Assembly (NCBI GenBank): GCA_035638155.1 | Contig: DASRAP010000433.1 | Location: forward strand, 4,569-68,568 | DNA length: 64,000 bases | Source: Gemmatimonadaceae bacterium | GTDB lineage: Bacteria > Gemmatimonadota > Gemmatimonadetes > Gemmatimonadales > Gemmatimonadaceae | Reading direction: 5' to 3' | In this document: piece by piece, positions 1 through 60,400 of the stretch | Position numbering within the stretch: the stretch's first letter is position 1 | Layout: every line of letters starts with the position of its first letter | Position numbers and translations under genes: made by a program | The notes under the pieces: model-generated | What the model was told of the DNA's origin: nothing | What the model saw: only the letters and a program-made list of their open reading frames with translations | The model's database searches: none

Positions 1-725
1 CACGTGTCCATGCCGACGACGCCGTCGGGCTGTAGACCGTGATAGGCGATCTGGAACGCCTTGACCTTGGCGGCAGTCTTACTCCCGTACCAGCCGTCAT
101 CGTCGATGCCCACGACGCGCTGGACGCGCTTGACGTCTTCGCCCCGGCTCGGGATCGGCACGAGCCAGGACCACTTCAGCACGCGCGCGAGCGGATCGAA
201 GCCGTCGGGCATCTTTTCGCTGAGTGCGACCGCGGCGCGATTGACCGCCGAGCGGAGAGCCGCGTAGTGATGCGCGACGCGCTGCGCCTTGGTGGCGCCG
301 AAACCCCGATAGTAGTTGGTGTCGTAAAGGGCTTCGCTCACCGCATACAGATCGCCGGTTTTGGCAGCCTCGAGCACCGAGGGGCGCTTCACGTACATCA
401 CGCGCACGAGGTCGGCCCAGCCGACCTCGGGGGTTGCGTAGCGCCGGAAGCACACCTGATAGGGCACGTTCGTGCCGGTGTTGGTCGGGTTGGTGTCCGT
501 GTAGAGAAAGCTCGTTGCCGGATTGCAAGGTGGATTGCCAGCCTGGATCGCGCCGATGTTGTTCGAGCCCGCGCCGTCGCCGTGCCAGCCGGCGCCGTAA
601 TCGGTCTCGAGCCAGCCGACACCTTGGCAGGCTTGCAAAACCGCGCGCAGCGGCTCAGCCTGGACGCCGAAGTTTTTTTCGTAGCCGCGCGTGGTGTAGA
701 GGCGCGCGTCTTTGTGCGTCGTCAT
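1..725 (-). CDS. Peptidoglycan hydrolase (endolysin-like); C-terminus runs off window start
   Basis: ATG at 725-723 behind AAGGAGG. My translation is stop-free to position 1; the ORF is absent from the track because it has no stop in the window. LETDYGAGW..NNIGAIQ..CFRRYATPEVGWADLVRVMY looks FlgJ/GH73-like. C-terminal VQRVVGIDDDGWYGSKTAAKVKAFQIAYHGLQPDGVVG fits PG_binding_1. Confidence 0.75.
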   Translation of the reverse strand, partial: MTTHKDARLYTTRGYEKNFGVQAEPLRAVLQACQGVGWLETDYGAGWHGDGAGSNNIGAIQAGNPPCNPATSFLYTDTNPTNTGTNVPYQVCFRRYATPEVGWADLVRVMYVKRPSVLEAAKTGDLYAVSEALYDTNYYRGFGATKAQRVAHHYAALRSAVNRAAVALSEKMPDGFDPLARVLKWSWLVPIPSRGEDVKRVQRVVGIDDDGWYGSKTAAKVKAFQIAYHGLQPDGVVGMDT

Positions 726-861
726 CGAGCCCTCCTTGCCATTTGCCAAAACAGCGCGATGAAGCCCACGACCAAAACGGCACCGATGAAGGTCAAGCGC
801 TCAGAGCGCGGCAGCCGATCGAATGGCAAGCCCAGCGTCATCGGTTTTTCCCAGCGGAGTA

Positions 862-1303: not shown

Positions 1304-1594
1304 CTAGGAGCCCGATGAGGGCATGCGCACGCGATCGGTTAGAATTTTTATCTTTACCTGGACAGCTACGAAGCCGACACGGAGACCGACGTGCGGATCG
1401 CCGATCATATAGGTCACTTGGACGTAGCAGGTCGGACCCGTGTACTCGCCCGCGTCCGCTGACCATTCCCGCAGCTTCAGGATGTCGCCGAGGAGAATCG
1501 GAGGTTGCGCTTCGCAGATCAGAAAGTGGAGACGCTTCTCGGCGATCGCCCGGTAGGTGGGGATGTGGAGTTTGATTTCGCGAAAACCGCTCAT
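1304..1594 (-). CDS. ASCH-superfamily (DUF3850-like) protein
   Basis: REIKLHIPTYRAIAEKRLHFLICEAQPPILLGDILKLREW..GEYTG..VQVTY resembles DUF3850/ASCH small beta-barrel proteins. ATGA overlap with 1591..2283. Confidence 0.6.
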   Translation of the reverse strand: MSGFREIKLHIPTYRAIAEKRLHFLICEAQPPILLGDILKLREWSADAGEYTGPTCYVQVTYMIGDPHVGLRVGFVAVQVKIKILTDRVRMPSSGS

Positions 1595-2283
1595 GCTGCA
1601 CGACTCACCACTTTCGTTAGCACGTAGATCGCGCCCGCCACCAAGGCCACCAATCCGATCGCTGCGCCCGCACTGGCCCCCTGGGCAACACCGCCAGATC
1701 CGCCGCCACTCGGCATCGGCTCGTTCCGCGCTTTGGTGATCGCCTGGAGGTTCTTGGTCATGGCGGCAATGTGTTTGCTCAGCGCGAGCTCGAAGTAGTG
1801 CGACTCGCGGAGCGTCTTCGAGAAATTCGCGATGTCGCCCATGTTGGCCGCCGCGAGCACCTTCGGACGCTGCTTGTAGAGTACCTGGATGAAGTGCGTG
1901 AATCCCTCATCGGGCGAAGCGTACTTGCGAAAGCATGCCTGGTAGGCTGTGCTTCCATGCTCGGGACCGCGATGGTCGGTGGCCTCGAAGCAGCTGCTCG
2001 AGCAGGGCGGCAGACCGCACTGCACCGCGCCCATGTTCCAGGTGTTGCAAGTGGTCGTGCCAGCGGGGATGTTTTTGTAGCAGGCTTGTCCGTAGTAGGA
2101 CTCGCCGCGCGAAACGGCTTGCGCGAATTGGGCCTCTAGTAACGTCGGCGTTCGGCCGAAAACGACCTTGAACGCGTTTTCGATGAAGGTGCGGGCGGAA
2201 ACGTCGCTTATTTGTGCCGCACCGAGGCCGACTTGGCGCGCGCCAAGCACTCTCACTTCACCGAGCCAAAGAAGCTTCGACAT
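1591..2283 (-). CDS. Membrane-anchored peptidoglycan hydrolase, paralogue of 1..725
   Basis: GESYYG..WNMGAVQ..CFRKYASPDEGFTHFIQVLY parallels the catalytic region of 1..725. C-terminal TM AAIGLVALVAGAIYVL. N-terminal MSKLLWLGEV tag. Confidence 0.65.
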   Translation of the reverse strand: MSKLLWLGEVRVLGARQVGLGAAQISDVSARTFIENAFKVVFGRTPTLLEAQFAQAVSRGESYYGQACYKNIPAGTTTCNTWNMGAVQCGLPPCSSSCFEATDHRGPEHGSTAYQACFRKYASPDEGFTHFIQVLYKQRPKVLAAANMGDIANFSKTLRESHYFELALSKHIAAMTKNLQAITKARNEPMPSGGGSGGVAQGASAGAAIGLVALVAGAIYVLTKVVSRAA

Positions 2284-3932
2284 TAGCGCCGACGCTTTCT
2301 GCCGCGGGCTCGTCGCTTGTGCGCGCGTTGGGCGGAGCGCTGCACTTTCGGCGAGCGATAGCCCAGTCGCACTACGCGCTCATGGGGCGCTGGACCTTGC
2401 GGCAAATCGCGGATTCCTGCCTCGGTCGGTCCGCGCCGCAGTCGCCGCGACACCATTGTGGCTGCCGCATCTTGAGAAGGCGCTCCGCTGACTCGATAAA
2501 CGGTTCCGTCATGGTTGTCATAGACGTAATACACGCCAGGCGGCGTCTGTGGAGATTCGGCTTCGTCCAGTGGCGTCTTCTTGAACCAACCGGACCAGAA
2601 GGCGTTCTCGTTGCTCGGATTCGAACGTGCCGCTGGCCGCTTCGGCGTGGCCGCTGTAGCACCGCTACTTCCGCCACCGAATATCGCCGCGCCGAGACCG
2701 AGGAGCGCGAGCGCCCCGACCGCAATCAGGATGCCAGTGTTTCCGCCACTTTCCGAGCTCGAAGGCGTTCCCCCGCCCGGGATCGGAGTCGGAGGGATCG
2801 GCAGGGGCGTCACGACGCAGAGCTTGCTCACCGGATCCCAATGGAAGCCGGGATCGCACTGCGTGACGTCGCTCGGATTTCCCGGAACGGGAGTCGGCAC
2901 GCGCGGAAGCGGCACTTGCGGAGTCGGCGCCGACGGAACCGGAGCGGATGGCGCCGGCGCGCTCGGAAATCCGGGGTTCGGGAGCTGTCCGGGGACGATC
3001 GTGATGCCCTTGGCCTGCGCCCAGACTTTCAACGAGTAAAGGCCCTGGGTCGTCAGGTCTTGCCACGCGATTTCGTTTTTCGTGGTGGGATTCGGGAGCG
3101 GTGGCGCCCATCCGGATTTGTTCCACCAGTTGTAAAAGTTCGCGAGGGTCCAGCCGTCGCGATCGCCCCAGACGAGCGAAATGTCGGCCGGCTGAAGACC
3201 ATAGCTGCCGATCGAATTGTTTCCGTCGGTTCCGTTCCATGCGGCGAGAATCGCCTTGGCCATCGCGACGTCGGCGTCGGGAAGAGCGCCGAGATCGCCG
3301 GGACCTTGGATGGTCACGGGAGGCCGATAGCGCGAGGTCGATGGAAAGATCGGAGCGATCGTTGTGAGAGGCTGGCGATATCCCGGGGGAGTTGGCATCG
3401 GTGCCGGGAGAGTGGGCAGGTAGGGAGGAATGCACCCGAAGCTGCCGTCGTCATGGACGATCTTCGAGTAGCCCGGAGGGCACGTGGTTTTGATTTGGGT
3501 GCCGGTGCTCAGAACTTCGTTGAGACTCTTCGAGACAGGGTCATAGCAATAGTAGTTAGCATTCCCACTGCCGGCGCTTTTGCTGAAATCGAAGGGTTCG
3601 AAGTTGGCGCCTTTCGGCACGAATTCGAGCGCGCACACCTTGAGCGGCTTCGATGTTTTCTTGGACCATTGCTCATAGAGCGCGCGCATGCGCTGTACGG
3701 CGACCCAGCGCAAAACCGTGTTGAAGGTGATTCCGCTCTGAAGTGGGAAATCTTCATGCACATAGTCATCGCCACCCGGGAGCGGGAAGACGGGGAATGG
3801 AGCCGCTGCGTTGAAAACGTAAATCTTCCACGCACCGCTCGTGTTCCACCACTGCCACTCGGCTGGCGTCATGCCGAGCTGCCCCGGCGCGCCGAGCACT
3901 TGGACCTTTTCTTCTAGCCATCGCATCGACAT
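2283..3932 (-). CDS. TM-anchored late protein with polybasic C-terminus (549 aa)
   Basis: MSMRWLEEKVQVLGA tag and Pro-rich linkers. Domain AWNGTDGNNSIGSYGLQPAD..FYNWWNK is shared with 3939..4559. TM GILIAVGALALLGLGAAIF. Tail AHKRRARGRKRRR. TAATG coupling to the next gene. Confidence 0.7.
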   Translation of the reverse strand: MSMRWLEEKVQVLGAPGQLGMTPAEWQWWNTSGAWKIYVFNAAAPFPVFPLPGGDDYVHEDFPLQSGITFNTVLRWVAVQRMRALYEQWSKKTSKPLKVCALEFVPKGANFEPFDFSKSAGSGNANYYCYDPVSKSLNEVLSTGTQIKTTCPPGYSKIVHDDGSFGCIPPYLPTLPAPMPTPPGYRQPLTTIAPIFPSTSRYRPPVTIQGPGDLGALPDADVAMAKAILAAWNGTDGNNSIGSYGLQPADISLVWGDRDGWTLANFYNWWNKSGWAPPLPNPTTKNEIAWQDLTTQGLYSLKVWAQAKGITIVPGQLPNPGFPSAPAPSAPVPSAPTPQVPLPRVPTPVPGNPSDVTQCDPGFHWDPVSKLCVVTPLPIPPTPIPGGGTPSSSESGGNTGILIAVGALALLGLGAAIFGGGSSGATAATPKRPAARSNPSNENAFWSGWFKKTPLDEAESPQTPPGVYYVYDNHDGTVYRVSGAPSQDAAATMVSRRLRRGPTEAGIRDLPQGPAPHERVVRLGYRSPKVQRSAQRAHKRRARGRKRRR

Positions 3933-3938
3933 GGAACA

Positions 3939-4559
3939 TCACCTCAAGAGCAGGGCAGCAAGACCGAGCACCGCGCCGACGATCGCAAGGACGCCCACCG
4001 CCCCAATGCCCTCCGAGCTCGGCGCTGACGTGATCGGCGCGGGCGGCGCCGGTAGGGGCGTCTGATTCGTCGGAACCGGAACCGGGATCGGTACGGGCAC
4101 CGGAACTGGTTGAGGTTGCGTGCGCGGACCGCAGGCCGCGAGACAGGTCGCGAGATTCGCGAGATCGCCCGCGTACTTCTGTTGACACGCAAGCGCGCAG
4201 TTGACGGATGGCGCCGGAACTTGGCCGGGATTGATGACGCCCTTTTCCACGCCCCATTGCAGAAGCGCCTGGAGATGCTCGGGCTTCAGATCGATCCAGG
4301 TGTACGAGCCGGGCGCGGGGAAGACCGCGGGCTGCTTGTTGTTGGCCTTCCACCAATTGGCGAAGCAGGCGAGCGCGTTTCCATCGCGCGTTTTCCACGT
4401 GGTCGGATCGACGTCGTCCGGCTCGAGGCCGTAGCCGGTGACGCAATTGTTGCCGTCGGTTGCCACGAACGAAGCGAGCAACGCCTTGGCTTGCGCGTTC
4501 GAGGGCGCGTCGAGAGCACCCAAGAAGTCGACTTTCTTTTCTAGCCAGCGCATGCCCAT
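3939..4559 (-). CDS. C-terminally TM-anchored paralogue of 2283..3932 (206 aa)
   Basis: MGMRWLEKKVDFLGA tag. FVATDGNNCVTGYGLEPDD..FANWWKANNK repeats the domain of the neighbouring gene. PVPVPVPIPVPVP linker. C-terminal TM GAVGVLAIVGAVLGLAALLL. Confidence 0.7.
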   Translation of the reverse strand: MGMRWLEKKVDFLGALDAPSNAQAKALLASFVATDGNNCVTGYGLEPDDVDPTTWKTRDGNALACFANWWKANNKQPAVFPAPGSYTWIDLKPEHLQALLQWGVEKGVINPGQVPAPSVNCALACQQKYAGDLANLATCLAACGPRTQPQPVPVPVPIPVPVPTNQTPLPAPPAPITSAPSSEGIGAVGVLAIVGAVLGLAALLLR

Positions 4560-4562
4560 GAC

Positions 4563-5141
4563 TCACCTCGAGAGAAAGAATGCCGCGAGGCCGATCACGA
4601 TACCCGCGATCGCGAGCGCCACGCCGGTGCCGCCGCCGGACGCCGCGGGCGTCGTAGAGCTCGCGGGCGGCGTCGTCGTGCCACCACCGCCGCCAGATCC
4701 GGGACGGGGGATTTTCTTACCGCCGGGCGTGCCTTGCGTCGTGGGACCGAAGCCGCACTTCTGGCCGCACTGAATCGCGGCGGCTTTGAGCGCCGCTTCG
4801 TCGGTGCCTACCGCTTCTTGCTGGAAGGCGTCCATACATGCGTTGAAGCACGGGCTCACCTTTGCGCCGACCTTCTGCATTTGCTCGTGGTCGACCAAGA
4901 TCCCCGCGCCGCACGCTTCGGTCATGCACTGGTTCACGCACGGCCAAATCAGAAGTCCGCCCCAGCCGCCGATGCCGATCGCGGTGCAGATCGCGTAGCA
5001 GGCGTCCTGGTTATAGAGGTTTGCCTGGCACGCGGAAGTGGTCGGCTCGGTGAAAAGTCCGACGCCAACAGGCGCAGCAAGGCGGCCGTTCCAGCGAACT
5101 GAGGAACGCGGGCCGACCTGGCCGCGCCAAGCTACGATCAC
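4563..5141 (-). CDS. Cys-rich C-terminally TM-anchored protein (192 aa)
   Basis: GTG at 5141 in GTGA overlap with the stop of 5138..5509. (M)IVAWRGQVGPRSSVRWNGRL parallels MIQSWSGQVALRPNGRL. 10 Cys. TM VALAIAGIVIGLAAFFL. Confidence 0.6.
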   Translation of the reverse strand: MIVAWRGQVGPRSSVRWNGRLAAPVGVGLFTEPTTSACQANLYNQDACYAICTAIGIGGWGGLLIWPCVNQCMTEACGAGILVDHEQMQKVGAKVSPCFNACMDAFQQEAVGTDEAALKAAAIQCGQKCGFGPTTQGTPGGKKIPRPGSGGGGGTTTPPASSTTPAASGGGTGVALAIAGIVIGLAAFFLSR

Positions 5142-5509
5142 GGGTTTGCTCTCATGTGCCCGCGTCCGCCCGCGAACATGATCGCCGCGGCGACCGCGAG
5201 CGCTCCGCCGAGCAACCACACGATCACAGGGACGCCCGCCGTCGCCGACGAGCTCGCGGGCGCGGGGGCCGGCGCGGGAGTCGGGGTCGGCGTCGGCGCG
5301 GGGACCGGAATGCCGGCGTTGATGACTTCGCCGATTTTAGCGGGGAGCTCCGCCGGGGTGAGGCCGCACGCCTTGAGGCACGGCTCGATGCACGTGAGGA
5401 ACGGGCGAGCGTTGGCGCACGATTGCGCGCAAAGCGCCTCGCAGTTCGAGAGGGCGCCGAGGCGCCCGTTCGGGCGGAGGGCGACTTGTCCTGACCAGGA
5501 TTGGATCAC
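5138..5509 (-). CDS. Cys-rich C-terminally TM-anchored protein (123 aa), paralogue of 4563..5141
   Basis: GTG start in GTGA overlap with the upstream stop. 6 Cys. PAPTPTPTPAPAPAP linker. TM VPVIVWLLGGALAVAAAIMF. Confidence 0.65.
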   Translation of the reverse strand: MIQSWSGQVALRPNGRLGALSNCEALCAQSCANARPFLTCIEPCLKACGLTPAELPAKIGEVINAGIPVPAPTPTPTPAPAPAPASSSATAGVPVIVWLLGGALAVAAAIMFAGGRGHMRANP

Positions 5510-6717
5510 GCTGCCGCCCTTCTACGCTTCGGGGCCGAGCGCCGACGCTTTTGCGAACGAGCTCGCGCCGCGCGCGCGGGCTGCTTCGGGAGGTTCGGGG
5601 CACGCATGCCCAAGAAGATCGCGCCGATGGCCGCGCCGATGCCGAGTAGCCAACCCCATCCGGAGCCGCCACCGATCCCGGCGGTGGTTGCCGTGGATTC
5701 GCAAGATCCGTCAGCTGCGCGCTTGTAACCCGTCGGGCACTTGTCGACGCACGATCCGGACACGCACTCCTTGGTCGGATCGGTGCACGGCGTTGCGGGC
5801 GTGCACTCCGGAGCGGGCGGCGGAGGAGCACCACCGCCGCTTCCCGCTGCGGCTTCGCACTCGTTCAGTTGCTGTTGGATTTGGTTGACCTGCGCTTGCG
5901 CTGCGTTTCGCGCTGACACTTGTCCGGCATATTGCGCGTCGAGAGCTTGGCCGGTGGCCGTGTCTCCGTTTTGATACGCCGCGATGCGCGCGGCATCGAG
6001 GTCGACGATGTAGCTCTTGATTCCCGCCAGTTTTGCCTTAGCGGCCTGCAACTGAGCATTTAGCGCGTCGCACGCTTCGTTTTGCCCGAGCCGCCCCTCG
6101 CCCGGACCGAACAAGAACGGAACCGGCGGGCGCGTGATGCGCGTCTGAAATTGCGTGGTCGTGACGGTCGTTCCGCCGAACGGCTGAGTCCCGAACGGGC
6201 TCAGCGGGATGCTTCGCCGAAAGAACGACGTGAACGGGAACGGATAGACGAACGGGATCGGATTGGGCGGAGGCGGCTGGTAGTTTCCGATCGTCGTCTT
6301 GACGCCGTCGTAGGTGCAGTACGAGACCGGCTGCATCAGGATGTTGGTCTTGGTGTACGAGCCGCACACGGCCTTGTATTTCCAGACCGGAGTGGCGCCC
6401 GGTGGAATGCCGCCCGGCTGCCACGAGTTGAACGCCTGCGTGATGCCCGCGTAGCCCTGCGCGTGCGTTCGCAGATGCGGCCCGCTGGTGCCGACGAGCT
6501 GGCCGTTGTTGTAAAAGTAGTAGGTCCAGTACTCGAGCTCGTAAGGCGCACCGACGCCTTCCTTCGGTCCGAGCAACTGCTGAGGCCCGCCGGCTCCGCC
6601 GCGATCGTGCAAGAACACCGGCCGGAGATTCGGCGGCATCACCGCGCTGCCGAAGTACGCTCGCGCGCTCGGTCCGGTTTGCGTCTTCACCGGGTCAATC
6701 CATTTCACGAGCGCCAT
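5506..6717 (-). CDS. Beta-rich + coiled-coil + Cys-cluster protein with C-terminal TM and polybasic tail (403 aa)
   Basis: Start moved to ATG 6717 (MALVKWIDPV), a 1-nt TGATG overlap with the upstream stop. Ala/Gln heptad-like stretch. TM WGWLLGIGAAIGAIFLG. Tail RSQKRRRSAPKRRR. Confidence 0.7.
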   Translation of the reverse strand: MALVKWIDPVKTQTGPSARAYFGSAVMPPNLRPVFLHDRGGAGGPQQLLGPKEGVGAPYELEYWTYYFYNNGQLVGTSGPHLRTHAQGYAGITQAFNSWQPGGIPPGATPVWKYKAVCGSYTKTNILMQPVSYCTYDGVKTTIGNYQPPPPNPIPFVYPFPFTSFFRRSIPLSPFGTQPFGGTTVTTTQFQTRITRPPVPFLFGPGEGRLGQNEACDALNAQLQAAKAKLAGIKSYIVDLDAARIAAYQNGDTATGQALDAQYAGQVSARNAAQAQVNQIQQQLNECEAAAGSGGGAPPPPAPECTPATPCTDPTKECVSGSCVDKCPTGYKRAADGSCESTATTAGIGGGSGWGWLLGIGAAIGAIFLGMRAPNLPKQPARAARARSQKRRRSAPKRRRAAA

Positions 6718-7607
6718 CAGCGTGGTCCTTTCGGTAAATCTTCGCAGCACGGGAAAAGCTCGACGGCCAAGCCGCCCGCGACTCGTCCGTAAACGACCGG
6801 CAAGGGTGAATCGAGCTCCTCGAAGGCAGAGACGAACTGATCCTCGGGGCGACCGACGCCCGCAGGGATGTTGAGGCCACAACGGCTGACCGGATTGGTC
6901 TGATGCACCGAGGCGTAGAAGGTCACTCGCCCAGGGCCGAGCACCGGGATCGAGAGCTCGCGCGCCGTCGGGTCGAGATAGCGCATGTCGCGCCACGTCC
7001 CGAGCAGGTCGACGTCAGCGCCAGGCGGGATGCCGGCGCCGGGGGGCTTGTACGGCAGGAACGGCGGCACATAGAGCAACGCCGCATCCTGGCCGCTCAT
7101 CGAAGGGCTCGCGCCGTCCGGTTGCGCGGGATCGTTGACCGACTCGGGGGAGAAGCGGTGGGGCTCGTAGCGCAAATGCCAGGAGATGTTTCCGTCCTGG
7201 AAGTGCCAGCCGGGGGAAGTGATCTCGAGCTCGACCGGGACCGGTCCGCACTCGGTGCTGCGCGATTGAGGCACGGTGCGAATCGTCGCGTACTGCCAAA
7301 TGCCGCGGATCACGATCGCGCGCTTCTTGTCGATTTCGACTTGAAGCAACCGAATCAAGTAGCGCTCAGCTTGCGATCGCGTCGCGTTGTCGGGCACGCG
7401 CACGCCAAGCGCGCTCGTGTCTCCCAGCCACGGCGTCGAACCGATGCCGAGCAAGTCGGGATCGAACGACTGCGTGAAGAGCTCGATCACCGCGCGGCAG
7501 TCCCAACGCGGATCGGCGCTCCCCAAAAACGAGGGATGGCCCACGACGCCCGCGCGCTTGGCGCGCTCGGCAGAGAGAGAGATTACGGATTTGGCGTTTG
7601 CCGACAC
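6717..7607 (-). CDS. TM-free structural candidate (296 aa), possible vertex/minor capsid protein
   Basis: GTG start behind AAAGGGGAA. Real CDS by composition. The function is inferred only from position after the two other capsid-size ORFs. Confidence 0.4.
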   Translation of the reverse strand: MSANAKSVISLSAERAKRAGVVGHPSFLGSADPRWDCRAVIELFTQSFDPDLLGIGSTPWLGDTSALGVRVPDNATRSQAERYLIRLLQVEIDKKRAIVIRGIWQYATIRTVPQSRSTECGPVPVELEITSPGWHFQDGNISWHLRYEPHRFSPESVNDPAQPDGASPSMSGQDAALLYVPPFLPYKPPGAGIPPGADVDLLGTWRDMRYLDPTARELSIPVLGPGRVTFYASVHQTNPVSRCGLNIPAGVGRPEDQFVSAFEELDSPLPVVYGRVAGGLAVELFPCCEDLPKGPR

Positions 7608-7621
7608 GGGCTATTCCCCTT

Positions 7622-8335
7622 TCAGGGGCAGCCCGGCCCCAAATCCCTCGGAGCGAAAACGCCCTCTGCCTGGAGCTCGTCGATGATCTGCGTGAAGTCG
7701 CAGCCGTTGTAGAGACCGGTCGGAAGCCGCGTCCCGTGAAAGGTGATAATCGCCTCGGTCGGTACTTCGTCGGCTTGAAGAGTGCGGAGGTTCGTGAAGA
7801 GGGCGTCGAAGGTGGCTGAGCACTTCAAGACCAGGCCGGCGGGGCAGACGCACTCGAAGACCGCTTCGATGTTCTCGAGGGGGGTCGGCTCGGTGTTGAT
7901 CAGGTAGTTGCAGAACGAGTGGATGATGAGCGAGTTCAGGTCGATGTTGGGGTTCAGGCGATTGAAGTAATCGGACTGAGCCTTCCAGATCGATCCTGCC
8001 GCGAAGTTCGGGCGGCGCACCGTGTAGGTGACGCGCCGGATCCAAATGTCGCTTTCGACCGTGCCGAGCATCTGACCCAGCACGGGCTTGTCCGCCGTGG
8101 TCGCATCCCAACGCGCTTTCACGCTGAGCATCACCCAGCCGTTGGTCTCGGTCACCAGCCAGCCGTCGCCAGCCATGCGGTAGCCGAGACCCTTTTTCGC
8201 GGCCTGCAAGAGCGTGTGCGCCAGCCGTGGCTCTTGGAGGGCGATCCCTCCGAGCCATTGCGGCGCCGCCGCTCGGCGCGCCCGGGCGAGCGCGGCCGAA
8301 ACCTCGTCGCCCGGAGCTGTGTTGGGTGCGTTCAC
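7622..8335 (-). CDS. TM-free structural candidate (237 aa), possible single-jelly-roll/penton-like protein
   Basis: GTG start 41 nt after the stop of 8377..9561. No TM and no motif. Functional call is positional inference. Confidence 0.4.
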   Translation of the reverse strand: MNAPNTAPGDEVSAALARARRAAAPQWLGGIALQEPRLAHTLLQAAKKGLGYRMAGDGWLVTETNGWVMLSVKARWDATTADKPVLGQMLGTVESDIWIRRVTYTVRRPNFAAGSIWKAQSDYFNRLNPNIDLNSLIIHSFCNYLINTEPTPLENIEAVFECVCPAGLVLKCSATFDALFTNLRTLQADEVPTEAIITFHGTRLPTGLYNGCDFTQIIDELQAEGVFAPRDLGPGCP

Positions 8336-8376
8336 TGGAGTGTGGCCTTGCCGATGACCTTACTTACCCGACGACC

Positions 8377-9561
8377 TTACTTCGCCGAGGCGAGGAGGTT
8401 GTCGAATTGCTTCTTGACGTCTTCCGGCAGGCCGTTCAGGGCGCCGCGGTTCGCGATGAGCTTGCTCGTCAGGTACGAGCCGATGCCCACCTGCTGGTAG
8501 AGCATTTCGAGCGCGCTTCCCGAGGTCACTCCCGCGAGGTACTCCACGCAAGCCGCCGGCACGAGGTCGTAGCCCGCGAGGACCGCGCCGATCGTGAAAC
8601 AGCCACCCGGCACCGTGTAGATCCCGGCGTTGCCCGAGCCGCACTCGAGCGTGTCCGTGAACTGGCTGCTCGGCAGAGTCGGAGTGGCGCAGTCGAGGAC
8701 CGCGTCGCGCCGCATCGCCGGGAAGAAGCAGCAATCACCCTCGACGCGCGTGAAACGGACGTCGATGGTCATGCCGGGCAACCAAAGGATCGGGAACGGC
8801 AGCGGATAGCAGCGGTTCGAGATGCCCTTGGTGTGCTGGCTTCCCCACATCGCTTCCGCAGTCGGCGCGGGCATGCACTCGCTACCAGCGGCGGTGTTCT
8901 GGGGGATGAATTGCTTGTTGCAACCCTTGGCCACGAGCACGTCGTTGACGTCGCGATTGAACGGAGTCGTCGAGATGAGCGAGGTGCCGCTCCCGACGAA
9001 TTCCATGGTCGCTCCGACGAGACCCATGACGTGGGCCGCTTCCTCGAAAATCTGGAAATGCCGTCCGATGAACATCGAGACGCGGTACGCCTGGAAGAAC
9101 TTCTCGATGATGTTCCAGGTCGGGTAACCCCATGCGAGCACCGCGTTGTGCTCGTCGAGCGCGCCGGTGCATCCGGTCACGCAAGGGGTCGGTCCGCCCG
9201 AGGCGACCACGTTCTTCATGACGCCCGTGAGCGCGAAGCCCTGGCCCTCTGCGGTCGCCAAGATGCCGAAGCCCATCATGAGGAACGGAGTCTCGACGGT
9301 CGTCCCGCGCGAGAGATTGGTCTGGCGACCCGGGCACGCTTGCGGCTGGTCGAGCGTGAAGAGTCGGATTTCCCCGGGGAATGCCGCGTCGAATTCCTCG
9401 GGCGTCATCGGCAGTTGGTACTGCGCGATGTCGTAGAGGCGAGCGGTCAAGCGCGAGAGCGGGCTCTTGCCGGCCGTGATCTGGCCGAGGATGCCGCCCT
9501 TGTGGGTCGGCTCGATCTGCGAAAACTGCTTGTGGTCTGCCTTGATAACTTCGGTCGCCAT
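8377..9561 (-). CDS. Candidate major capsid protein (394 aa, 12 Cys)
   Basis: Largest TM-free late ORF, preceded by the only ~100-nt gap of the late operon and an AAAGGA leader. Gly/Thr/Val-rich. Size is typical of double-jelly-roll capsid proteins. The CDS is solid; the fold is unverified. Confidence 0.45.
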   Translation of the reverse strand: MATEVIKADHKQFSQIEPTHKGGILGQITAGKSPLSRLTARLYDIAQYQLPMTPEEFDAAFPGEIRLFTLDQPQACPGRQTNLSRGTTVETPFLMMGFGILATAEGQGFALTGVMKNVVASGGPTPCVTGCTGALDEHNAVLAWGYPTWNIIEKFFQAYRVSMFIGRHFQIFEEAAHVMGLVGATMEFVGSGTSLISTTPFNRDVNDVLVAKGCNKQFIPQNTAAGSECMPAPTAEAMWGSQHTKGISNRCYPLPFPILWLPGMTIDVRFTRVEGDCCFFPAMRRDAVLDCATPTLPSSQFTDTLECGSGNAGIYTVPGGCFTIGAVLAGYDLVPAACVEYLAGVTSGSALEMLYQQVGIGSYLTSKLIANRGALNGLPEDVKKQFDNLLASAK

Positions 9562-9663
9562 TTTCTTTATCGATCCTTTTTCAGCGGGGCCGGCCGGTGT
9601 ACGTGCGCGGGCGACCCCGATGAATAAACGTGTTGGAGCAAACTTTTTGGTGAATTTTCGCGA

Positions 9664-11514
9664 TCAGACTTCTTGCGGCGCTTCGTCCATGTTCCAGAAG
9701 GAAATGGTCCCGGAGGGTCGCTGACGAGCAACAACCTTCTCGGGCTGTTGCGGCTGGCCGTTCGCCTTTTCAGGGGCGGCGCCGGCCATCGTTCCGGCGG
9801 CGGTCATGACCGTCGTCGTGGGGGGCGTGATCAACACACGCTCCGGGCCGCCAGGAATGGGAGCGATGGTCTCGGTGACGACCGTGCCCGAGGGGACATA
9901 CGGAGTCGACGGAACGAGCGGCACACCGGCGGGGACTCCGCCTTTGCGCTGTTCGACCACCAAGCACATGCCGTACGGCAAGCGCACCGAGTTTCCGACC
10001 ACCCAGTAGGTGTCCGGAGTGCCACCATTCATGGCGGAGACTGCGTCGATCGAGACACCACCGGCGGCGGCGATTTCGGCGAGATCATCGCCGACTTCCA
10101 CCTCGTAGGTGCACTCGGTGTACGGGCGGTAGCTGTCGCCACAGCCCGGACAGAGCGATTGGCAGTCGCTGTAGCAACCGTCTTTTCCACCGCACGATTG
10201 GCAGTTTCCAAGACGGTTCGTTTGGAGGAACGTCCGCGGATTTTGGCCGGAACCCACACTGCCCGCGGGGTCAGTTAGGGCTTGCGCTTTTCCCTGGGGG
10301 TTTGCTCCCAAGACCGCGAGGTTGGTCGTCTGGTCGCCGAGGGGCGAGTTGATCTGAGACGCTTCCCCTTGCTGGCCCGCCGAAAGCGAGGGCACCGTCG
10401 CCCAAGCCTTGAACGACGCATCGATCGCCTTCTGCACCGAGTCCTGCTCGAGTGCGTACATGCGATTCGCGAAGGACATCGGCTTCGCCGGGTCGACCTT
10501 CAGGATTGCCGGCATCAGGTACCAGTTAGCGAGCTTGAGGAGCGCGTTCGAGCCGAAGCCGAGCGCGATACCCGAAGCGAGCCACGGGATGATGCCGCGA
10601 CCGCGCGTCCAAGCTGCGAGGCCGAGGGCGACGACGCCGCCCACAACCTGCACGCCGAGGCGCGTGGCGTCCGGCCGGCGGTAGATCGCGGCAGCCGCGT
10701 CTGCGCCGTACCAGGCATTTTTGCCGTCCTTCGGCTTCATGGTCGCGACGACGCGATCCACGAAGTCGGCGACCAAGAGCCCGATCGCCACGCCGGCCGC
10801 AGCCGTGCCGTACCGAACGAGGTTTTCTCGGGTGTAGGGGCTCGCGGGATTCGAGAGAAGCCCGCCGATCCCGGGATTTTCGAGCATGGCCATTTCGCGG
10901 CGGGTCAAACCACCGGCGAATTTGCCGCTGCGCGTACGTTTGTACTTGCAGGGCGGGCAACGCCGACGCGAAGACCGGCGGCGCGAAGCCGCTCGAGTCG
11001 TCCGGCGACGCTTCCGGCCTCCACCGTGGCGGCGTTTCCGCCACCCCTTCCGGGCCGCTCGAGCATGCCGGCGGGGCTGACCCGGCCAGGCGTTCTCGAG
11101 GGTCACGGTGGTCGGATTTTCGTTCTGGGCCGCGGCGGCCGCTCGGCGCCGCTTCGGGCGTCGGCGTGCCTTTCGGCGGCGGCGGCGGTTCTCTTCGTAC
11201 CGCCCACGATTGTCCGCGACGCGGCGACGCTTGGCGTAGCGACGCTTTCGCGGATTGGCCGAGGCGCTCGCAGCGGCGCGGCGGCGACGGCCACCACGCT
11301 TCTTGCGACGAGCGGCTTGCGCCTTTCGGATGTTCTTTCGAGCAGCAGCGATCTGAGCGCGAGTTGCCATCTTGTTCTCTTCGTGGGCCTTCAGCGCGTC
11401 AGCACGACGCGGCGATTTGATGCCAGGATTTTCGAGGTAACGAGCGATTTGCGCTTTTACGCGCAAAGCGACTTTCGTCGGCTCCGCACACGCACACGCC
11501 ACGTTTCTCGCCAT
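9664..11514 (-). CDS. Polybasic + multi-TM + Cys-cluster + LysM protein (616 aa)
   Basis: The first ~215 aa are Arg/Lys-rich (RRKKRGGRRRR, RRRRRKARRRPKRRR, GGGRKRRR). Then 3-4 hydrophobic helices and CQSCGGKDGCYSDCQSLCPGCG. YEVEVGDDLAEIAAAGGVSIDAVSAMNGG..VVGNSVRLP fits the LysM pattern. Start is uncertain (11514 or ATG 11370). Confidence 0.7.
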   Translation of the reverse strand: MARNVACACAEPTKVALRVKAQIARYLENPGIKSPRRADALKAHEENKMATRAQIAAARKNIRKAQAARRKKRGGRRRRAAASASANPRKRRYAKRRRVADNRGRYEENRRRRRKARRRPKRRRAAAAAQNENPTTVTLENAWPGQPRRHARAARKGWRKRRHGGGRKRRRTTRAASRRRSSRRRCPPCKYKRTRSGKFAGGLTRREMAMLENPGIGGLLSNPASPYTRENLVRYGTAAAGVAIGLLVADFVDRVVATMKPKDGKNAWYGADAAAAIYRRPDATRLGVQVVGGVVALGLAAWTRGRGIIPWLASGIALGFGSNALLKLANWYLMPAILKVDPAKPMSFANRMYALEQDSVQKAIDASFKAWATVPSLSAGQQGEASQINSPLGDQTTNLAVLGANPQGKAQALTDPAGSVGSGQNPRTFLQTNRLGNCQSCGGKDGCYSDCQSLCPGCGDSYRPYTECTYEVEVGDDLAEIAAAGGVSIDAVSAMNGGTPDTYWVVGNSVRLPYGMCLVVEQRKGGVPAGVPLVPSTPYVPSGTVVTETIAPIPGGPERVLITPPTTTVMTAAGTMAGAAPEKANGQPQQPEKVVARQRPSGTISFWNMDEAPQEV

Positions 11515-11525
11515 GCACGAAAAGA

Positions 11526-12113
11526 TTATGGCCAGCGAAATCCGTGCTCGTCAACAATACAGCCGCGCGGAAGCGGCAAACGCCACCCCAAAGTGCGCTT
11601 GCTATAACGCACCTCAACGGGCGGATCGTATTCGTGCTCGAACGGCTTGTCGAAGCCCGGACGCCGATAGCGAATGAGACGCACGCGCGCTAAGCGCGCC
11701 CACGGTCCCTCGGGAATTTCCACCGATCCGTAAGTGAGAGGAAGTGGGCGGTCGTTCTGATCGACGAAGTACTTTTCTGCGTCATCGAGCACGTCGCCAG
11801 GTGCGTTTTTCGCACCTCCTCCGCGCGCTCGAACAATATACAAATCGCACCGGTCCAAAAGTGCGCCGGTCGTGTCGTGCACGAGCACATACCCCCGCGG
11901 GAAGGTCACGTCGGCCGCCGGCATGCGCGGTTCCCAGAAGACTTCGCGCTCTCCGTTTGGACCGGTCGCGCGCACGATGCGGCGCGCGCCGGAGTTTCGC
12001 ACGCGTTCGACGGACACGAATTGGATGTTCGTGCCGCGCACGATCATGTGGTGCGTGTAACACGCACCGGTCGTGCAATCTTCAGCTTCGACGATGCGGC
12101 CGGAGTCCGTCAT
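11526..12113 (-). CDS. Hypothetical protein (195 aa)
   Basis: MTDSGRIVEAEDCTTGAC.. with protein-like composition. TAATG coupling to the upstream stop. No motif recognised. Confidence 0.7.
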   Translation of the reverse strand: MTDSGRIVEAEDCTTGACYTHHMIVRGTNIQFVSVERVRNSGARRIVRATGPNGEREVFWEPRMPAADVTFPRGYVLVHDTTGALLDRCDLYIVRARGGGAKNAPGDVLDDAEKYFVDQNDRPLPLTYGSVEIPEGPWARLARVRLIRYRRPGFDKPFEHEYDPPVEVRYSKRTLGWRLPLPRGCIVDEHGFRWP

Positions 12114-12979
12114 TAGGCCGCTCGCGCCAATTGACGACTCGGCGGAAGCGCGCGCGAGCTCGAGCGCGCACCCGCAGGCGGCACCAAGCGCACGAGTGCG
12201 TAAAGCACACCGAGACCGAGCGCGACCAGCGCGACGGTCTTAATCGTGTTCGTGATGTCGGTAGTGGGCTGACTGCCGGCTTTGATTTGCTCGACCTTCT
12301 GCGCGCGCACCGCAGCGGCGCCGGTGTAGATCGATTGATTGAGCTTCGCGGCTTGGTCGGGCGTGCATTTTCCGGTCGTCACGCACTCGTAGGATTTTTC
12401 CGCGATCGTGCGCATCGTCTTTTGCTCGGCGACGTCAGTGATGTTGTTGACCGCTTTCTCGACCGCCCAGTACGCGGGCAGAGCGAGCACCGTGACGCCC
12501 AAGGTGGTAGCCCACACGATCGCGGGCACTCCGACTTGCCCTTGCACGTGCGTTTGCTCACCCGCGGGATTCACGATGATCGGCACGTCGCCATTGAGCG
12601 CCAAGCGCACGACGTCCGATGAGAGCCCCTCGATTTCGAATTGATTCTTTTCCGTGTTCCAAGCGACTTTGCGCTTTCCGGCGATCGCGTCGTTTAGGGC
12701 GTCGGTGATGATCTTCACCATCGCCATCGCGTCGACTGCGTTCTGATCGAGATCCGAAGACCACGCCGACGCGCTCGACATGCCCGGGACGGCGCCACCC
12801 TCCGGGCCGGCGCCGTCGACCAGGAACGGCAGGCCGAGATTCTGCCGGACCGTCTTTAGCCCGGTGTAGGCGGCGACAGCTCGCGTCCACGAGCCTTGCA
12901 GGTTGTCGCGGAGCGCCGTGAGGTACGCTTCCCAGGCTTTTTCGTCGGCCGGCTGGCCCAGCCATCGCAGCTTTTTCAT
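12113..12979 (-). CDS. Membrane protein (288 aa, two TM helices)
   Basis: Start moved to ATG 12979 (MKKLRWLGQP tag). TM helices VPAIVWATTLGVTVLALPAYW and IKTVALVALGLGVLYALV. Confidence 0.65.
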   Translation of the reverse strand: MKKLRWLGQPADEKAWEAYLTALRDNLQGSWTRAVAAYTGLKTVRQNLGLPFLVDGAGPEGGAVPGMSSASAWSSDLDQNAVDAMAMVKIITDALNDAIAGKRKVAWNTEKNQFEIEGLSSDVVRLALNGDVPIIVNPAGEQTHVQGQVGVPAIVWATTLGVTVLALPAYWAVEKAVNNITDVAEQKTMRTIAEKSYECVTTGKCTPDQAAKLNQSIYTGAAAVRAQKVEQIKAGSQPTTDITNTIKTVALVALGLGVLYALVRLVPPAGARSSSRALPPSRQLARAA

Positions 12980-13137
12980 TTGTTGAGTCTCGCTCGGTAG
13001 ATGTTGATTGCCAGGGAAGTCGCTGAAATCAGCAGGCCCACGATCGCAAACCACTCGATCCGCGAGAGCCTATGGCCGTCGCCCGGGATTTCCTCGGGAG
13101 CGGCGGAAACCTGACCGGACCAGCGCAAAATGGCCAT
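12976..13137 (-). CDS. Small TM protein (53 aa), not in ORF track
   Basis: MAILRWSGQVSAAPEEIPGDGHRLSRIEWFAIVGLLISATSLAINIYRARLNK has the N-tag plus one TM. High GC3. The stop overlaps the next start (ATGA). Confidence 0.5.
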   Translation of the reverse strand: MAILRWSGQVSAAPEEIPGDGHRLSRIEWFAIVGLLISATSLAINIYRARLNK

Positions 13138-13147
13138 CGCTCGCCCT

Positions 13148-14159: not shown

Positions 14160-14906
14160 CTAGCCGGGACAGCGAGCAAGCGTGAGCGCTCTTTCGAGCG
14201 TCCGATCACCCGGCTTCCACACGACGCGAGCTCGGAGGCCGCGCAAGCCGTCAACGCCAATGAAAACGCCCTTGTCGACGAAGTTTAGCCGGTCGGGATC
14301 GAAGGACCTTCCGCCGCCCGCGCCGATGCACACTTCGTCGTCGCAAATCACCTTCACGTTTGGGACGGAGAGGATCCGCTCGTAGGTGAAGGGGACGCAT
14401 TTGCCGAGCTGGTAGTCGGTCGACGGATCGCCGTAGTGCCAGCGGCCGTCCAAGTGCGCGGCGCACAGCACGTGCTCGATGTTGTGCTCGTCGTCGTACG
14501 CATGGCCCACCACCAAGGTGTGGATCCCGACGGACATCCAAGCCGCGCCGAGGAGCGTCGCGACGCCGTCGCAATCGTCGCCACGAATGCAAACCTTGTT
14601 GGGGTTGGTCTTCGGATCGCACGCGAGCAAGGTCGCCGCCGGCATGTATTCGGCCCCGATTGGGTCGGGCACCCATAATTTCTTCTGGACGGCGGAAAGG
14701 AGAATGCGCGCGCGGTCGTTCGGGGTCTTGGCGCTCGAGAGGCCGCGTTCGCGGGCCACGTCGAGCATTTCGATCGCCCAAGTGCGCACGCCCGGATCGA
14801 TCGCGCCCTTCGAGACGCGCTTGGCCACTTCGTCGAGCGAGCTATTGACGCCCGCTTTGCCGAATGGGTGCTCGCGTTCGGTTACAGCAGTCCAAGGGGC
14901 GGGCAT
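14160..14906 (-). CDS. Transglutaminase-core / papain-like cysteine protease candidate
   Basis: GDDCDGVATLLGAAWMSVGIHTLVVGHAY..EHVLCAAHLDGRWHYGDPS fits the Cys-His-Asp transglutaminase-like core. Confidence 0.6.
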   Translation of the reverse strand: MPAPWTAVTEREHPFGKAGVNSSLDEVAKRVSKGAIDPGVRTWAIEMLDVARERGLSSAKTPNDRARILLSAVQKKLWVPDPIGAEYMPAATLLACDPKTNPNKVCIRGDDCDGVATLLGAAWMSVGIHTLVVGHAYDDEHNIEHVLCAAHLDGRWHYGDPSTDYQLGKCVPFTYERILSVPNVKVICDDEVCIGAGGGRSFDPDRLNFVDKGVFIGVDGLRGLRARVVWKPGDRTLERALTLARCPG

Positions 14907-54660: not shown

Positions 54661-54960
54661 CTACTTCACCGGCACCGCGACGACCAGCGCGAGAGCGCCG
54701 TCCGGATCGTCGTAGGCGAATTTTGGGGTGTCCGAGGGGTCTTCGGGATCTCGCGGCAACTCGCGGCGCGCGGCGTTCCAGCCGTCATCGGTGTAAGCGC
54801 GGCACTCGCCGGTCGCGTCGATCAGATGCGTGTGAAGGCTTCCCCTGTAGCCGAGCTCGGCGGCCGCGGCATGCAGGATGTCACTCACGTCGTCGCCATC
54901 GAACACGTTCGGGGGGTACGTTTTTCCAACGACTGTGATCGCGTAGGCCATGGGTTTCAC
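54661..54960 (-). CDS. Hypothetical protein (99 aa)
   Basis: ..MAYAITVVGKTYPPNVFDGDDVSDILH... ATGA overlap with the fibre 3 stop. Confidence 0.55.
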   Translation of the reverse strand: MKPMAYAITVVGKTYPPNVFDGDDVSDILHAAAAELGYRGSLHTHLIDATGECRAYTDDGWNAARRELPRDPEDPSDTPKFAYDDPDGALALVVAVPVK

Positions 54961-56624: not shown

Positions 56625-56626
56625 GG

Positions 56627-59342: not shown

Positions 59343-59373
59343 CGTCGTTCTCAGAGCTTATGATGCGAGCACC

Positions 59374-60369: not shown

Positions 60370-60396
60370 CATCTTGTTGCAAGATGTTACATCTTG
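60369..60396. promoter_or_regulatory. Operator-like AT-richer inverted + direct repeat (ACATCTTG)
   Basis: ACATCTTG-TTG-CAAGATGT (60369-60387) plus a third ACATCTTG at 60389-60396. Lies between the gmd stop and the ATG of the HTH-TM gene. Confidence 0.35.
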
Positions 60397-60400
60397 CTAC

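Follow-up and report, generated by a model that had tools for sequence, protein, structure and literature searches.

A long arginine-rich arm on a viral membrane protein may hold and compact DNA against the virus's own membrane

The 64,000-nucleotide window analysed here is most of the circular genome, about 73.5 kb in size, of an uncultured tail-less virus. Circularity of the contig is indicated by a 141-nt overlap between its two ends. The contig had been binned with a Gemmatimonadaceae MAG. It carries a weak match to a rolling-circle Rep (19237..20766, minus strand; 509 aa) that scores under Pfam's cut-off, and no sequence relatives of the element were found among 50,697 phage records. More than 10 membrane proteins are encoded, and the particle appears to combine these with one or more jelly-roll-type shell proteins; it is probably membrane-lined. 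Throughout, TM helices were called by Kyte-Doolittle hydropathy alone.

The sequence-only reading drew attention to four proteins, and all four are encoded where it placed them, on the minus strand. The longest is a three-pass membrane protein of 616 aa (9664..11514) with an Arg-rich N-terminal arm, three TM helices, a Cys cluster, a LysM domain, a Pro-rich region and an acidic C-terminal end. With a net charge of +61 and a pI of 10.9, it ranks as the most basic of the late proteins and is the only strongly basic one. The arm, residues 1-234 upstream of TM1 (10813..11514, minus strand), holds 58 Arg, 19 Lys, 40 Ala and 13 Asp/Glu residues; its 77 basic residues leave it with a net charge of +64, and the protein outside the arm is about neutral (-3). 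A semi-conserved head of about 48 aa opens the arm, xNP punctuates it, and AF2 predicts long helices at residues 52-84 and 88-130 (pLDDT 80-92). Its densest part, residues 49-215 (10870..11370, minus strand), is 39% Lys/Arg, 17% Ala and 56% Lys/Arg/Ala, which bears out the earlier description of a start of about 170 residues made largely of Arg, Lys and Ala. The annotated start of some homologues is the equivalent of an internal Met in this dense part (MATRAQIAAARKNI...). The three-helix membrane core, residues 235-340 (10495..10812, minus strand), is highly conserved and carries about half of the invariant residues of the family. Beyond it come a Cys cluster (invariant C438, C441, C451, C455 and C458) and then LysM at about residues 466-515 (together 9940..10209, minus strand). 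Pfam gave no LysM detection in the 616-aa protein itself and found the domain in 8 of 17 homologues; it is clear in the family profile, which matches the PDB LysM of LytE with an E-value of 2.4e-9, and AF2 models a beta-alpha-alpha-beta unit at this position (pLDDT 80-89).

An arm is present in every homologue with enough sequence to judge, and the L010 homologue, at 40% identity, has a large one too. Its sequence is poorly conserved and its length drifts from 140 to 330 aa across the family, whereas the net charge before TM1 is +56 to +80 in every full-length homologue, with the remainder of the protein about neutral. P0003, P0014 and P0013 look short through artefacts of gene calls or contig ends, not through arm loss: either a full arm is encoded in an open frame upstream, or a contig end lies 86 nt from the gene start. 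Charge that is conserved over a variable, low-complexity arm is more readily matched to a polyanion, for example DNA, than to a defined protein surface.

The other three proteins end in short basic stretches. The 403-aa protein (5506..6717, minus strand) has an N-terminal tag, a variable middle, a Cys knot, a TM helix at residues 353-371 (5605..5661) and a 32-aa tail (5509..5604), RAPNLPKQPARAARARSQKRRRSAPKRRRAAA, with 13 Lys/Arg and no Asp/Glu. In the 613-aa fibre-like protein (50592..52433, minus strand), about 350 aa of repeats of about 20 aa lead through a Pro linker and a transglutaminase-like region to a TM helix at residues 569-587 (50673..50729) and a 26-aa tail (50595..50672) that ends PRRRRRLPNRRKKR and has 12 Lys/Arg and 2 Asp/Glu. 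The 549-aa protein (2283..3932, minus strand) places its TM helix at residues 400-418 (2679..2735), and the 131-aa region beyond it (2286..2678) has 26 Lys/Arg and 10 Asp/Glu, with KRRARGRKRRR at the extreme C-terminus (2286..2318). All three tails reach 8-9 Arg/Lys per 11 residues. The proposal that several late proteins end in a TM helix and then an Arg/Lys run thus stands for 3 of the roughly 11 late proteins whose TM is C-terminal, but the run of the 549-aa protein does not directly follow its helix. The others end 0-10 residues past the helix, except the protein at 12113..13054, whose 22-aa post-TM tail has just 4 Lys/Arg.

Conservation of these tails is partial. They are held within the clade down to about 34% identity, and in the 403-aa protein the TM-plus-tail module is, over that same range, more conserved than the middle or ectodomain. 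The ectodomain is swapped among relatives and the TM and tail are constant, a pattern consistent with an outer part that varies and an inner part that is conserved. However, the short tails are lost in the L004 orthologue, the L007 orthologue of the 549-aa protein is without the long tail, and no C-terminal-TM protein of the L005/L010 clade carries a poly-Arg tail. For the short tails, these losses count in part against the sequence-only reading.

Immediately downstream of the arm gene, in conserved synteny, lies a gene for a 394-aa protein (8377..9561, minus strand) that we consider a candidate jelly-roll-like shell protein on the strength of its model. The AF2 model is beta-rich (pLDDT 84) and its closest structures are viral jelly-roll capsid proteins, the SPV1 capsid chain being the top PDB match (a weak Foldseek hit, E ~5e-4); no sequence profile was found that links it to a solved capsid protein. 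Two conserved late proteins of 237 and 296 aa with no TM (6717..8335, minus strand), whose genes always adjoin the 394-aa gene, are possible further shell proteins. A 230-aa paralogue (1591..2283, minus strand) of the soluble lysin at 3..749 is tethered by a C-terminal TM, and it is informative on topology because its wall-directed domain shares a side with the other N-terminal domains.

The contig has no Walker A motif in any of its frames, no P-loop NTPase anywhere and no match to an FtsK/HerA or A32 packaging ATPase at E<=1; a near-identical, CheckV-complete IMG/VR record likewise lacks a packaging ATPase and a Walker A motif. The packaging ATPase is otherwise kept throughout Varidnaviria (PMC13552765). 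Enclosure of the DNA would therefore have to be protein-mediated and motor-less.

We suggest that the long Arg-rich arm may keep the viral DNA compacted against the membrane of the virus itself; where the protein sits in the virion, its topology, its DNA binding and the assembly route are all points that we infer. Our preferred reading, which we hold tentatively and at somewhat less than an even chance, is that the arm anchors the genome to the cytoplasm-derived membrane face and offsets part of its charge, thereby permitting encapsidation with no motor, and that the short tails are accessory NP-poly-Arg copies. The three TMs of the 616-aa protein put arm and LysM on opposite faces, so the helical, NP-punctuated Arg/Lys/Ala arm would lie on the positive-inside, cytoplasm-derived face, with the Cys cluster and LysM on the other. 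Among the C-terminal TMs, the C-flank is more positive than the N-flank at 8 of 11 and less positive at 2. The arms would bind the circular DNA once replicated, partly neutralising it, at a membrane modified by the virus, and this binding would draw the membrane around the genome, making encapsidation concurrent and motor-free. As an arithmetic estimate, one arm offsets 64 of about 147,000 phosphates, and half-neutralisation would take about 1,000 copies per particle. For PM2, which also has a circular genome, the DNA is thought to be enclosed together with a DNA-interacting membrane patch (PMC6356626); our membrane-drawn step matches that proposal, and it parallels the protein-condensed core that lies under the lipid layer in SPV1. 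LysM, the tethered lysin, the fibre and the variable ectodomains would finish outside, where they could attach to the cell wall and cut it during entry. The tails of the 403- and 613-aa proteins and the end of the 549-aa protein would be the same NP-poly-Arg module, borne by other membrane proteins on that face, thickening the positive lining in this clade and dispensable in the wider family. No signal peptide was found on the late proteins with large N-terminal domains, so placing those domains on the non-cytoplasmic face calls for an unexplained insertion route; if these proteins are instead tail-anchored, the poly-Arg tails must cross the membrane.

The arm could instead face outward, as a capsid-membrane tether or lipid sorter on a PRD1-style, inward-pinched patch. 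It would then meet acidic shell proteins and anionic outer-leaflet lipids, and either glue the shell to the membrane or recruit phosphatidylglycerol/cardiolipin, and LysM would sit in the lumen until the membrane everts at entry. Poly-Arg binds lipid phosphates, the shell candidates are mildly acidic (-4 to -7, pI ~5.5), and the semi-conserved arm head could be a protein-docking element. The PRD1 vesicle arises by the inward pinching of a cytoplasmic-membrane patch, which is the best-documented route among internal-membrane phages (PMC6356626); such pinching turns the cytoplasmic face toward the capsid and so takes the arm and the positive-inside tails off the DNA side. We nevertheless think this arrangement unlikely: filling a preformed closed vesicle needs a motor and the genome has no ATPase, LysM would be trapped in the interior along with the tethered lysin, and a conserved net charge of +64 on a variable sequence better suits DNA.

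Less probable still is that the 616-aa protein works outside the particle, as an anchor that ties replicating viral DNA to the envelope of the infected cell, like p16.7 of phage phi29, or, in a variant, takes part in the timing of lysis or in superinfection exclusion, LysM anchoring it to the wall. Association with membranes is common among rolling-circle replicons, and natural insertion, with the arm cytoplasmic and LysM periplasmic, makes immediate functional sense of such an anchor. However, the gene is among the best-conserved late genes and lies inside the late operon, directly upstream of the shell-protein gene, in all relatives examined, and no other late protein could neutralise the DNA.

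The sequence-only reading had itself allowed that the tails may only satisfy the positive-inside rule. They would then be topology signals that enforce N-out/C-in insertion or retention, the arm fixing the LysM protein N-in, with no role involving nucleic acid. The lability of the short tails across the family fits such a role, and one or two basic residues suffice for most C-terminal-TM proteins of the element. Against it, the basic density far exceeds that of the host bin: of 515 membrane proteins crudely called in the remainder of the MAG, each with 5-150 aa beyond its final TM, none (0/515) has at least 8 Lys/Arg in any 11-residue window and 2 have 7, and the highest Lys/Arg fraction in a 170-aa window is 0.32, versus 0.39 in the arm. 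An arm of such length and conserved charge hugely exceeds a topogenic signal, and the tail of the 403-aa protein outlasts its ectodomain in conservation. We regard this explanation as very improbable.

The least credible alternative is an entry device, in which the arm is a pilot or cell-penetrating segment that travels with the genome, the TMs form or seed a conduit, LysM docks to peptidoglycan and condensation is incidental; poly-Arg peptides do cross membranes, and LysM and the adjoining wall-degrading proteins suggest wall contact at entry. The internal membrane delivers the genome in PRD1-like phages (PMC6356626), but an entry role also requires the arm on the DNA side and is thus compatible with the arm holding the genome.

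The proposed membrane-tethered, DNA-holding arm can be compared with several known systems. Sulfolobus polyhedral virus 1 (SPV1, Portogloboviridae) has a nucleoprotein core of VP1 beneath an inner lipid layer, and on our reading it resembles the element in its icosahedral jelly-roll shell, its lipid layer, its circular dsDNA that is condensed by protein rather than pumped in, the absence of a packaging ATPase from its assigned functions, and its glycosyltransferase and methyltransferase genes (PMC8459092). In the PDB, its capsid chain is also the structure closest to the 394-aa model, by the weak Foldseek match (E 5e-4). However, SPV1 is an archaeal virus with a 20-kb genome, and VP1 is small and soluble, forms a filament with A-form DNA, and has no TM, no LysM and no sequence similarity. 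Adenovirus proteins VII, V and Mu are similarly arginine-rich and of low complexity, and neutralise and condense dsDNA within a jelly-roll-capsid virus; the adenovirus structural module also encodes a viral cysteine protease, to which a transglutaminase-like candidate (14160..14906) would be the counterpart in the element. Those core proteins are soluble and carry no membrane anchor, adenovirus lacks a membrane and encodes a packaging ATPase, and no homology was found.

Arginine-rich N-terminal arms and C-terminal domains in the capsid proteins of small viruses (nodavirus, circovirus, HBV core), and histone H1-like tails, are likewise genome-facing basic segments with conserved charge and variable sequence, and H1-type tails have a composition similar to that of the arm. 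The capsid arms of small viruses are 20-60 aa long and lie within the shell protein itself, whereas the element's far longer arm is fused to a three-pass membrane core and a wall-binding domain. The p16.7 protein of phi29 is also a membrane protein of viral origin; it binds viral DNA through its cytoplasmic part and tethers that DNA to the membrane, but it is small and non-structural, acts in replication, and has an N-terminal TM and a folded dimeric DNA-binding domain with no Arg arm or LysM. P7 of PRD1 and other virion-associated tectiviral wall enzymes share the placing of wall-directed domains on membrane proteins in the virion of a phage without a tail, but are transglycosylases rather than LysM binders and have no basic arm. 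The corticovirus PM2 differs in its 10-kb genome, DJR capsid protein and putative ATPase, and an Arg-rich arm protein has not been described for it. It is nonetheless like the element, as we read it, in its circular dsDNA, rolling-circle replication and assembly that passes through no empty procapsid, and in PM2 a membrane area specific to the phage has been proposed to contact the nucleic acid, enclose it and pinch off (PMC6356626).

Among the late proteins, only the 616-aa protein (9664..11514, minus strand) is strongly basic, with a charge of +61 and a pI of 10.9. This charge sits in the 234 residues before the first transmembrane (TM) helix, which hold 77 K/R against 13 D/E (net +64), the remaining 382 residues being about neutral. 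The sequence-only reading had noted some 170 residues rich in Arg, Lys and Ala in this LysM protein, and that description held up: residues 49-215 are 39% K/R and 56% K/R/A, and the arm belongs with low-complexity sequences of the protamine-like kind (at least ~30-40% Arg/Lys with a large net positive charge). AF2 predicted long helices in the arm at 52-84 and 88-130 (pLDDT 80-92) and TM helices at 229-258, 283-303 and 309-338, in a model of the whole protein with a pTM of 0.26.

Twenty-two database homologues were found, all from metagenomes. The three-helix membrane core is their best-conserved part, with about half of the family's invariant residues; next come an invariant Cys cluster and a LysM-like segment. 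The arm is poorly conserved in sequence, and some homologues show repeat expansions of an ANP-RRKRRR-AAA unit; all full-length homologues have a pre-TM arm of 139-327 aa with a net charge of +56 to +80, and the relative in locus L010, at 40% identity, has a large arm too. Five homologues looked short, and we rejected them as a disproof of arm conservation after examining three, which are explained by contig-end truncation or by upstream open frames: one begins 86 nt from a contig end, and in two others the frame upstream of the called start encodes a full arm (locus L007, 4657..6459; locus L008, 9326..11176). The arm was found in every homologue with enough sequence to judge, and it looks as though charge is the property of the arm that has been selected. 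The 195-aa protein at 11526-12113 (minus strand) is always directly upstream of the arm gene in relatives; it gave no family match and has a conserved C-terminus (...RYRR.GF.KPFEH.YDPPV...LPLP.GC..D..GF.WP).

Taken by itself, the 616-aa protein gave no Pfam LysM match. The family profile (A2), searched against the PDB, found the LysM of LytE (E 2.4e-9) plus several other LysM chains, and Pfam LysM (PF01476) matched 8 of 17 homologues, with a best E of 1.1e-5. The predicted structure has the LysM beta-alpha-alpha-beta fold (E468-471, H478-485, H489-496, E509-512; pLDDT 80-89), and a putative LysM domain in the 616-aa protein is supported at the family level.

It had also been proposed that several late proteins end in a TM helix followed by an Arg/Lys run. 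The architecture was confirmed, but in just three minus-strand proteins, and the basic run directly follows the helix in only two of them. In the 403-aa protein (5506..6717), a hydropathy scan and the translation place the TM helix at 353-371, followed by 32 residues with 13 K/R and no acidic residue, and in the 613-aa protein (50592..52433) the helix at 569-587 is followed by 26 residues with 12 K/R. In the 549-aa protein (2283..3932), KRRARGRKRRR closes a 131-aa region beyond the helix at 400-418. At least 11 late proteins have a C-terminal TM; of about eight without such a tail, most end 0-10 residues past the helix, and one has a 22-aa tail with only 4 K/R. So many C-terminal-TM proteins are an indirect hint that the particle may contain a lipid membrane with virus-encoded proteins.

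Retention of these tails in homologues proved to be a property of the clade. A TM helix followed by 9-13 K/R was seen in 5/5 homologues of the 403-aa protein (34-88% identity), and the C-terminal 75 residues are conserved better than the middle, which has been swapped outright in the homologous proteins P0144 and P0145. The orthologue in the related locus L003 ends ...ADNPRRKQRRRAA. In more distant relatives the tails are missing: the L004 orthologue has none and ends ...KDNPHCPSCY, and all C-terminal-TM proteins of L005 and L010 end 0-4 residues past the helix. In L007 the 549-aa protein has an orthologue whose tail is 9 aa long, and an unrelated L007 protein ends ...RKRPSEKPRPKRRRRR. From these comparisons the tails are a mobile, clade-specific module. 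Between close relatives the middle of the 403-aa ectodomain is exchanged, and in P0145 pieces of the 403-aa protein are joined to pieces of the 549-aa protein, but the Cys knot, TM and tail remain nearly identical; such shuffling of domains is characteristic of proteins that interact with a host.

The tails share the xNP-plus-poly-Arg signature of the arm. In the arm and in tails from L003, L004 and L007, [A/D/E/Q/S]-N-P breaks up the basic runs; the 616-aa family keeps two N-P pairs ahead of TM1 without exception (N213-P214, N222), and the 123-aa protein at 5138..5509 terminates precisely in ...RANP. This punctuation may cap helix N-termini or mark a site of processing. C-terminal '-RAA' endings were set aside as a candidate motif; they partly reflect overlapping stop/start contexts (ATGA, GTGA).

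The contig that carries these genes (C433) is 73,663 nt long, the longest of 443 in its metagenome-assembled genome (MAG), and its ends share an identical 141-nt overlap, which implies a circular assembly of about 73.5 kb; an IMG/VR record 98-99% identical to it is rated complete by CheckV. The window spans C433 positions 4569-68568. GC is 63.3% in C433 and 65.6% in the remaining bin, whose RpoB is 82% identical to that of a Gemmatimonadaceae MAG. CRISPR-spacer-like matches between C433 and the rest of the MAG were all 20-21-nt chance matches, and host assignment is therefore by binning alone. By a codon-usage gene call, the late block is one long minus-strand run from ~18,200 through position 1 and across the circle to ~48,900. 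Recognisable functions fall outside its core: besides a sugar-modification cluster, described below, they include a C5 methylase, DUF3560, NUDIX, a tyrosine integrase and a weak match to a rolling-circle Rep. The structural block gave no Pfam or PHROG match, those to GBP_PSP, Zein, TnpW and MCH being rejected as below cut-off or compositional; gene calls were crude, and TM helices were taken from hydropathy.

No terminase, portal, HK97-fold capsid or tail gene was matched by Pfam among ~40 proteins, or by PHROG among the 10 structural-block proteins scanned. The Walker A motif is absent from all six frames of C433 (window -4568..69095; the 73.5-kb replicon), which therefore encodes no helicase, primase-helicase, terminase or packaging ATPase of the P-loop class. 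Searches for FtsK/HerA (PF01580) and A32 (PF04665) on C433 and its complete IMG/VR twin gave nothing at E<=1. C433 thus shows no packaging ATPase like that of Varidnaviria, throughout which the FtsK/HerA type is described as conserved (PMC13552765). In this it differs from the Varidnaviria-like internal-membrane viruses with jelly-roll capsids (PRD1, PM2, SSIP-1, P23-77).

Downstream of the arm gene, every relative has genes of ~400, ~210-240 and ~260-310 aa, without a convincing TM helix; in the window these encode the 394-aa protein (8377..9561, minus strand) and then the 237-aa and 296-aa proteins (6717..8335). All three of these candidate shell proteins are slightly acidic. Searches found 78 representative relatives of the 394-aa protein; its AF2 model is confident (pLDDT 84, pTM 0.82), and for it Foldseek ranked an SPV1 capsid chain first, at a weak E of 5e-4, followed by nodavirus, birnavirus and polyomavirus capsid proteins and the STIV MCP, almost all of them viral jelly-roll capsids; one BFVD entry was matched with a probability of 1.0. 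The family profile found no match to a solved capsid among PDB sequences. Judged from its predicted fold, the 394-aa protein is likely a jelly-roll shell protein. The 296-aa family profile found nothing in the PDB, and hhalign showed no relation between the 296-aa and 394-aa families.

Other late proteins have features of their own. Many of the C-terminal-TM proteins open with a short tag, M-x(1-4)-[VIL]-x-W-[LS]-G, that is conserved across the family; it occurs at window 1591-14140 (minus strand), on the contig before the window start, and in L004, L005 (for example MTTIQWLGAPRTLGQ) and L010; a scan of the rest of the MAG (the host bin) for an N-terminal W[LS]G tag was uninformative, as the pattern is too loose. 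A 947-aa protein of L004 has the tag three times, twice internally (VEWLGEG..., VEWLGRE...), which suggests fused modules or a polyprotein. Small C-terminal-TM proteins at 3939-5509 (minus strand) contain paired C-x3-C motifs, such as CALAC...CLAAC and CEALCAQSC...CIEPCLKAC, a pattern usual in helical hairpins stapled by disulfides, which suggests that those domains lie in an oxidising environment. In the 613-aa protein, some 17 repeats of ~20 aa stand in tandem (ALFGQTGNLAGAGALAAxS) and are followed by a segment like the transglutaminase-like protein at 14160-14906 (minus strand; ...DGRWHYADP...F..ER...VP), and the whole resembles a fibre joined to a copy of a candidate protease fold. Two ~550-aa proteins at 54957-58285 (minus strand) have sequences suggestive of a right-handed beta-helix (tailspike- or depolymerase-like) and are possible receptor-binding proteins of a tail-less particle. 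The late strand block also contains a sugar-modification cluster, at 59317-63719 and beyond the window end (63720-69039), with a GDP-mannose 4,6-dehydratase, an FkbM methyltransferase, a C-methyltransferase, a small methyltransferase, a 1045-aa protein and two paralogous ~350-400-aa proteins whose translations, by eye, resemble glycosyltransferases. Its products may add sugars to the membrane proteins on their Pro/Ser/Thr-rich stalks.

Three TM helices put the arm and the LysM domain of the 616-aa protein on opposite faces of the membrane and, since the arm is not plausibly translocatable, it would mark the cytoplasm-derived face. Across 11 C-terminal TMs, positive charge is greater on the C-flank than on the N-flank in 8 cases and smaller in 2, a bias that places the tails on the face of the arm and the N-domains on that of LysM. 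These N-domains include a tethered lysin paralogue, the repeat fibre, twin-Cx3C modules and variable domains swapped between relatives. The picture is a coherent one, with wall-directed and variable parts on one face and all polycationic parts on the other. In a genome without a motor, the simplest use of the polycationic face would be genome binding. We suggest, tentatively and as somewhat more doubtful than probable, that the arm face binds the genome and that membrane and DNA are united during motor-less assembly. The genome has ~147,000 phosphates, and by our estimate half-neutralisation needs about 1,000-1,100 arms; about 1,100 should be geometrically feasible in a vesicle big enough for 73 kb.

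One rival is inward pinching of a membrane patch from the cell membrane, as in PRD1, which is the best-documented route (PMC6356626); the cytoplasmic face would then lie next to the shell and not the DNA, and the arm with it. The topology of the tailed proteins is a second weak point. The large N-domains lack a signal peptide, and by hydropathy the 403-aa and 613-aa proteins have a single C-terminal TM and no N-terminal signal or hydrophobic segment, like tail-anchored proteins, a class that the 549-aa protein, with 131 aa after its TM, does not fit. Tail-anchored proteins have a short, weakly charged tail, which describes most other late C-terminal-TM proteins (0-10 aa) but not the 12-13 K/R in 26-32 aa seen here. 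Either the N-domains are cytoplasmic as in that class, which would force the poly-Arg tails through the bilayer, or they get to the opposite face by an unexplained route, perhaps via the N-terminal W-L-G tag; as speculation, an open-sheet or de novo membrane would resolve this paradox. The 616-aa protein could also be a DNA anchor of the cell membrane that never enters the particle. The positive-inside rule alone, which the sequence-only reading had offered as its alternative, fits the density poorly: among 2,891 genes from the rest of the MAG, called with the same crude caller, none of the 515 proteins with 5-150 residues after the last TM has at least 8 K/R per 11-residue window (two reach 7, and the three viral tails 8-9), and no stretch of 170 aa in the host bin exceeds a K/R fraction of 0.32, so the viral basic segments are well outside the local norm for topology signals.

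Beyond genome binding at the arm face, we consider a more specific scheme, which is unlikely as a whole. The arm protein would itself be the packaging device of a lineage of 44-112-kb tail-less bacterial viruses with motor-less enclosure, in which ~1,000 tethered arms zipper an open, cytoplasm-derived membrane sheet round the circular DNA. Adenovirus cuts pVII and pMu into free basic peptides, and the xNP-punctuated arm may likewise be cut by the transglutaminase-like cysteine protease. LysM would later dock the exposed membrane on the host wall.

Tblastn of two proteins against 50,697 phage records (INPHARED) gave no match, alignment A2 found no relative in 185,579 GTDB species genomes, and no paper in the literature searched describes a protein combining an Arg arm, a membrane core and LysM. 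The analysis thus points to a so far undescribed virus lineage, present in metagenomes of soil and groundwater, in which one conserved candidate links a putative DNA-binding polycation to a membrane and a predicted wall-binding domain. If genome binding at the arm face is true, motor-less encapsidation would become open to molecular tests, as would the topology of inner membranes in viruses.

Tailed phages pump their DNA with a terminase motor. At ~73.5 kb, the element is several times the quoted genome sizes of membrane-containing prokaryotic viruses; PM2 has about 10 kb and SSIP-1 about 44 kb. The SPV1 genome is about 20 kb (PMC8459092). PM2, whose circular genome is copied by rolling circle, is believed to take up its DNA along with a membrane patch that interacts with it (PMC6356626), a mode of assembly described as "concurrent". 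Were the zippered-sheet scheme true, prokaryotic viruses would have a third means of enclosing large dsDNA, in addition to motors and to filaments of nucleoprotein alone. Arg-rich genome-facing arms are already known; what is new is an arm of 140-330 aa joined to a three-pass core and LysM in a large motor-less virus.
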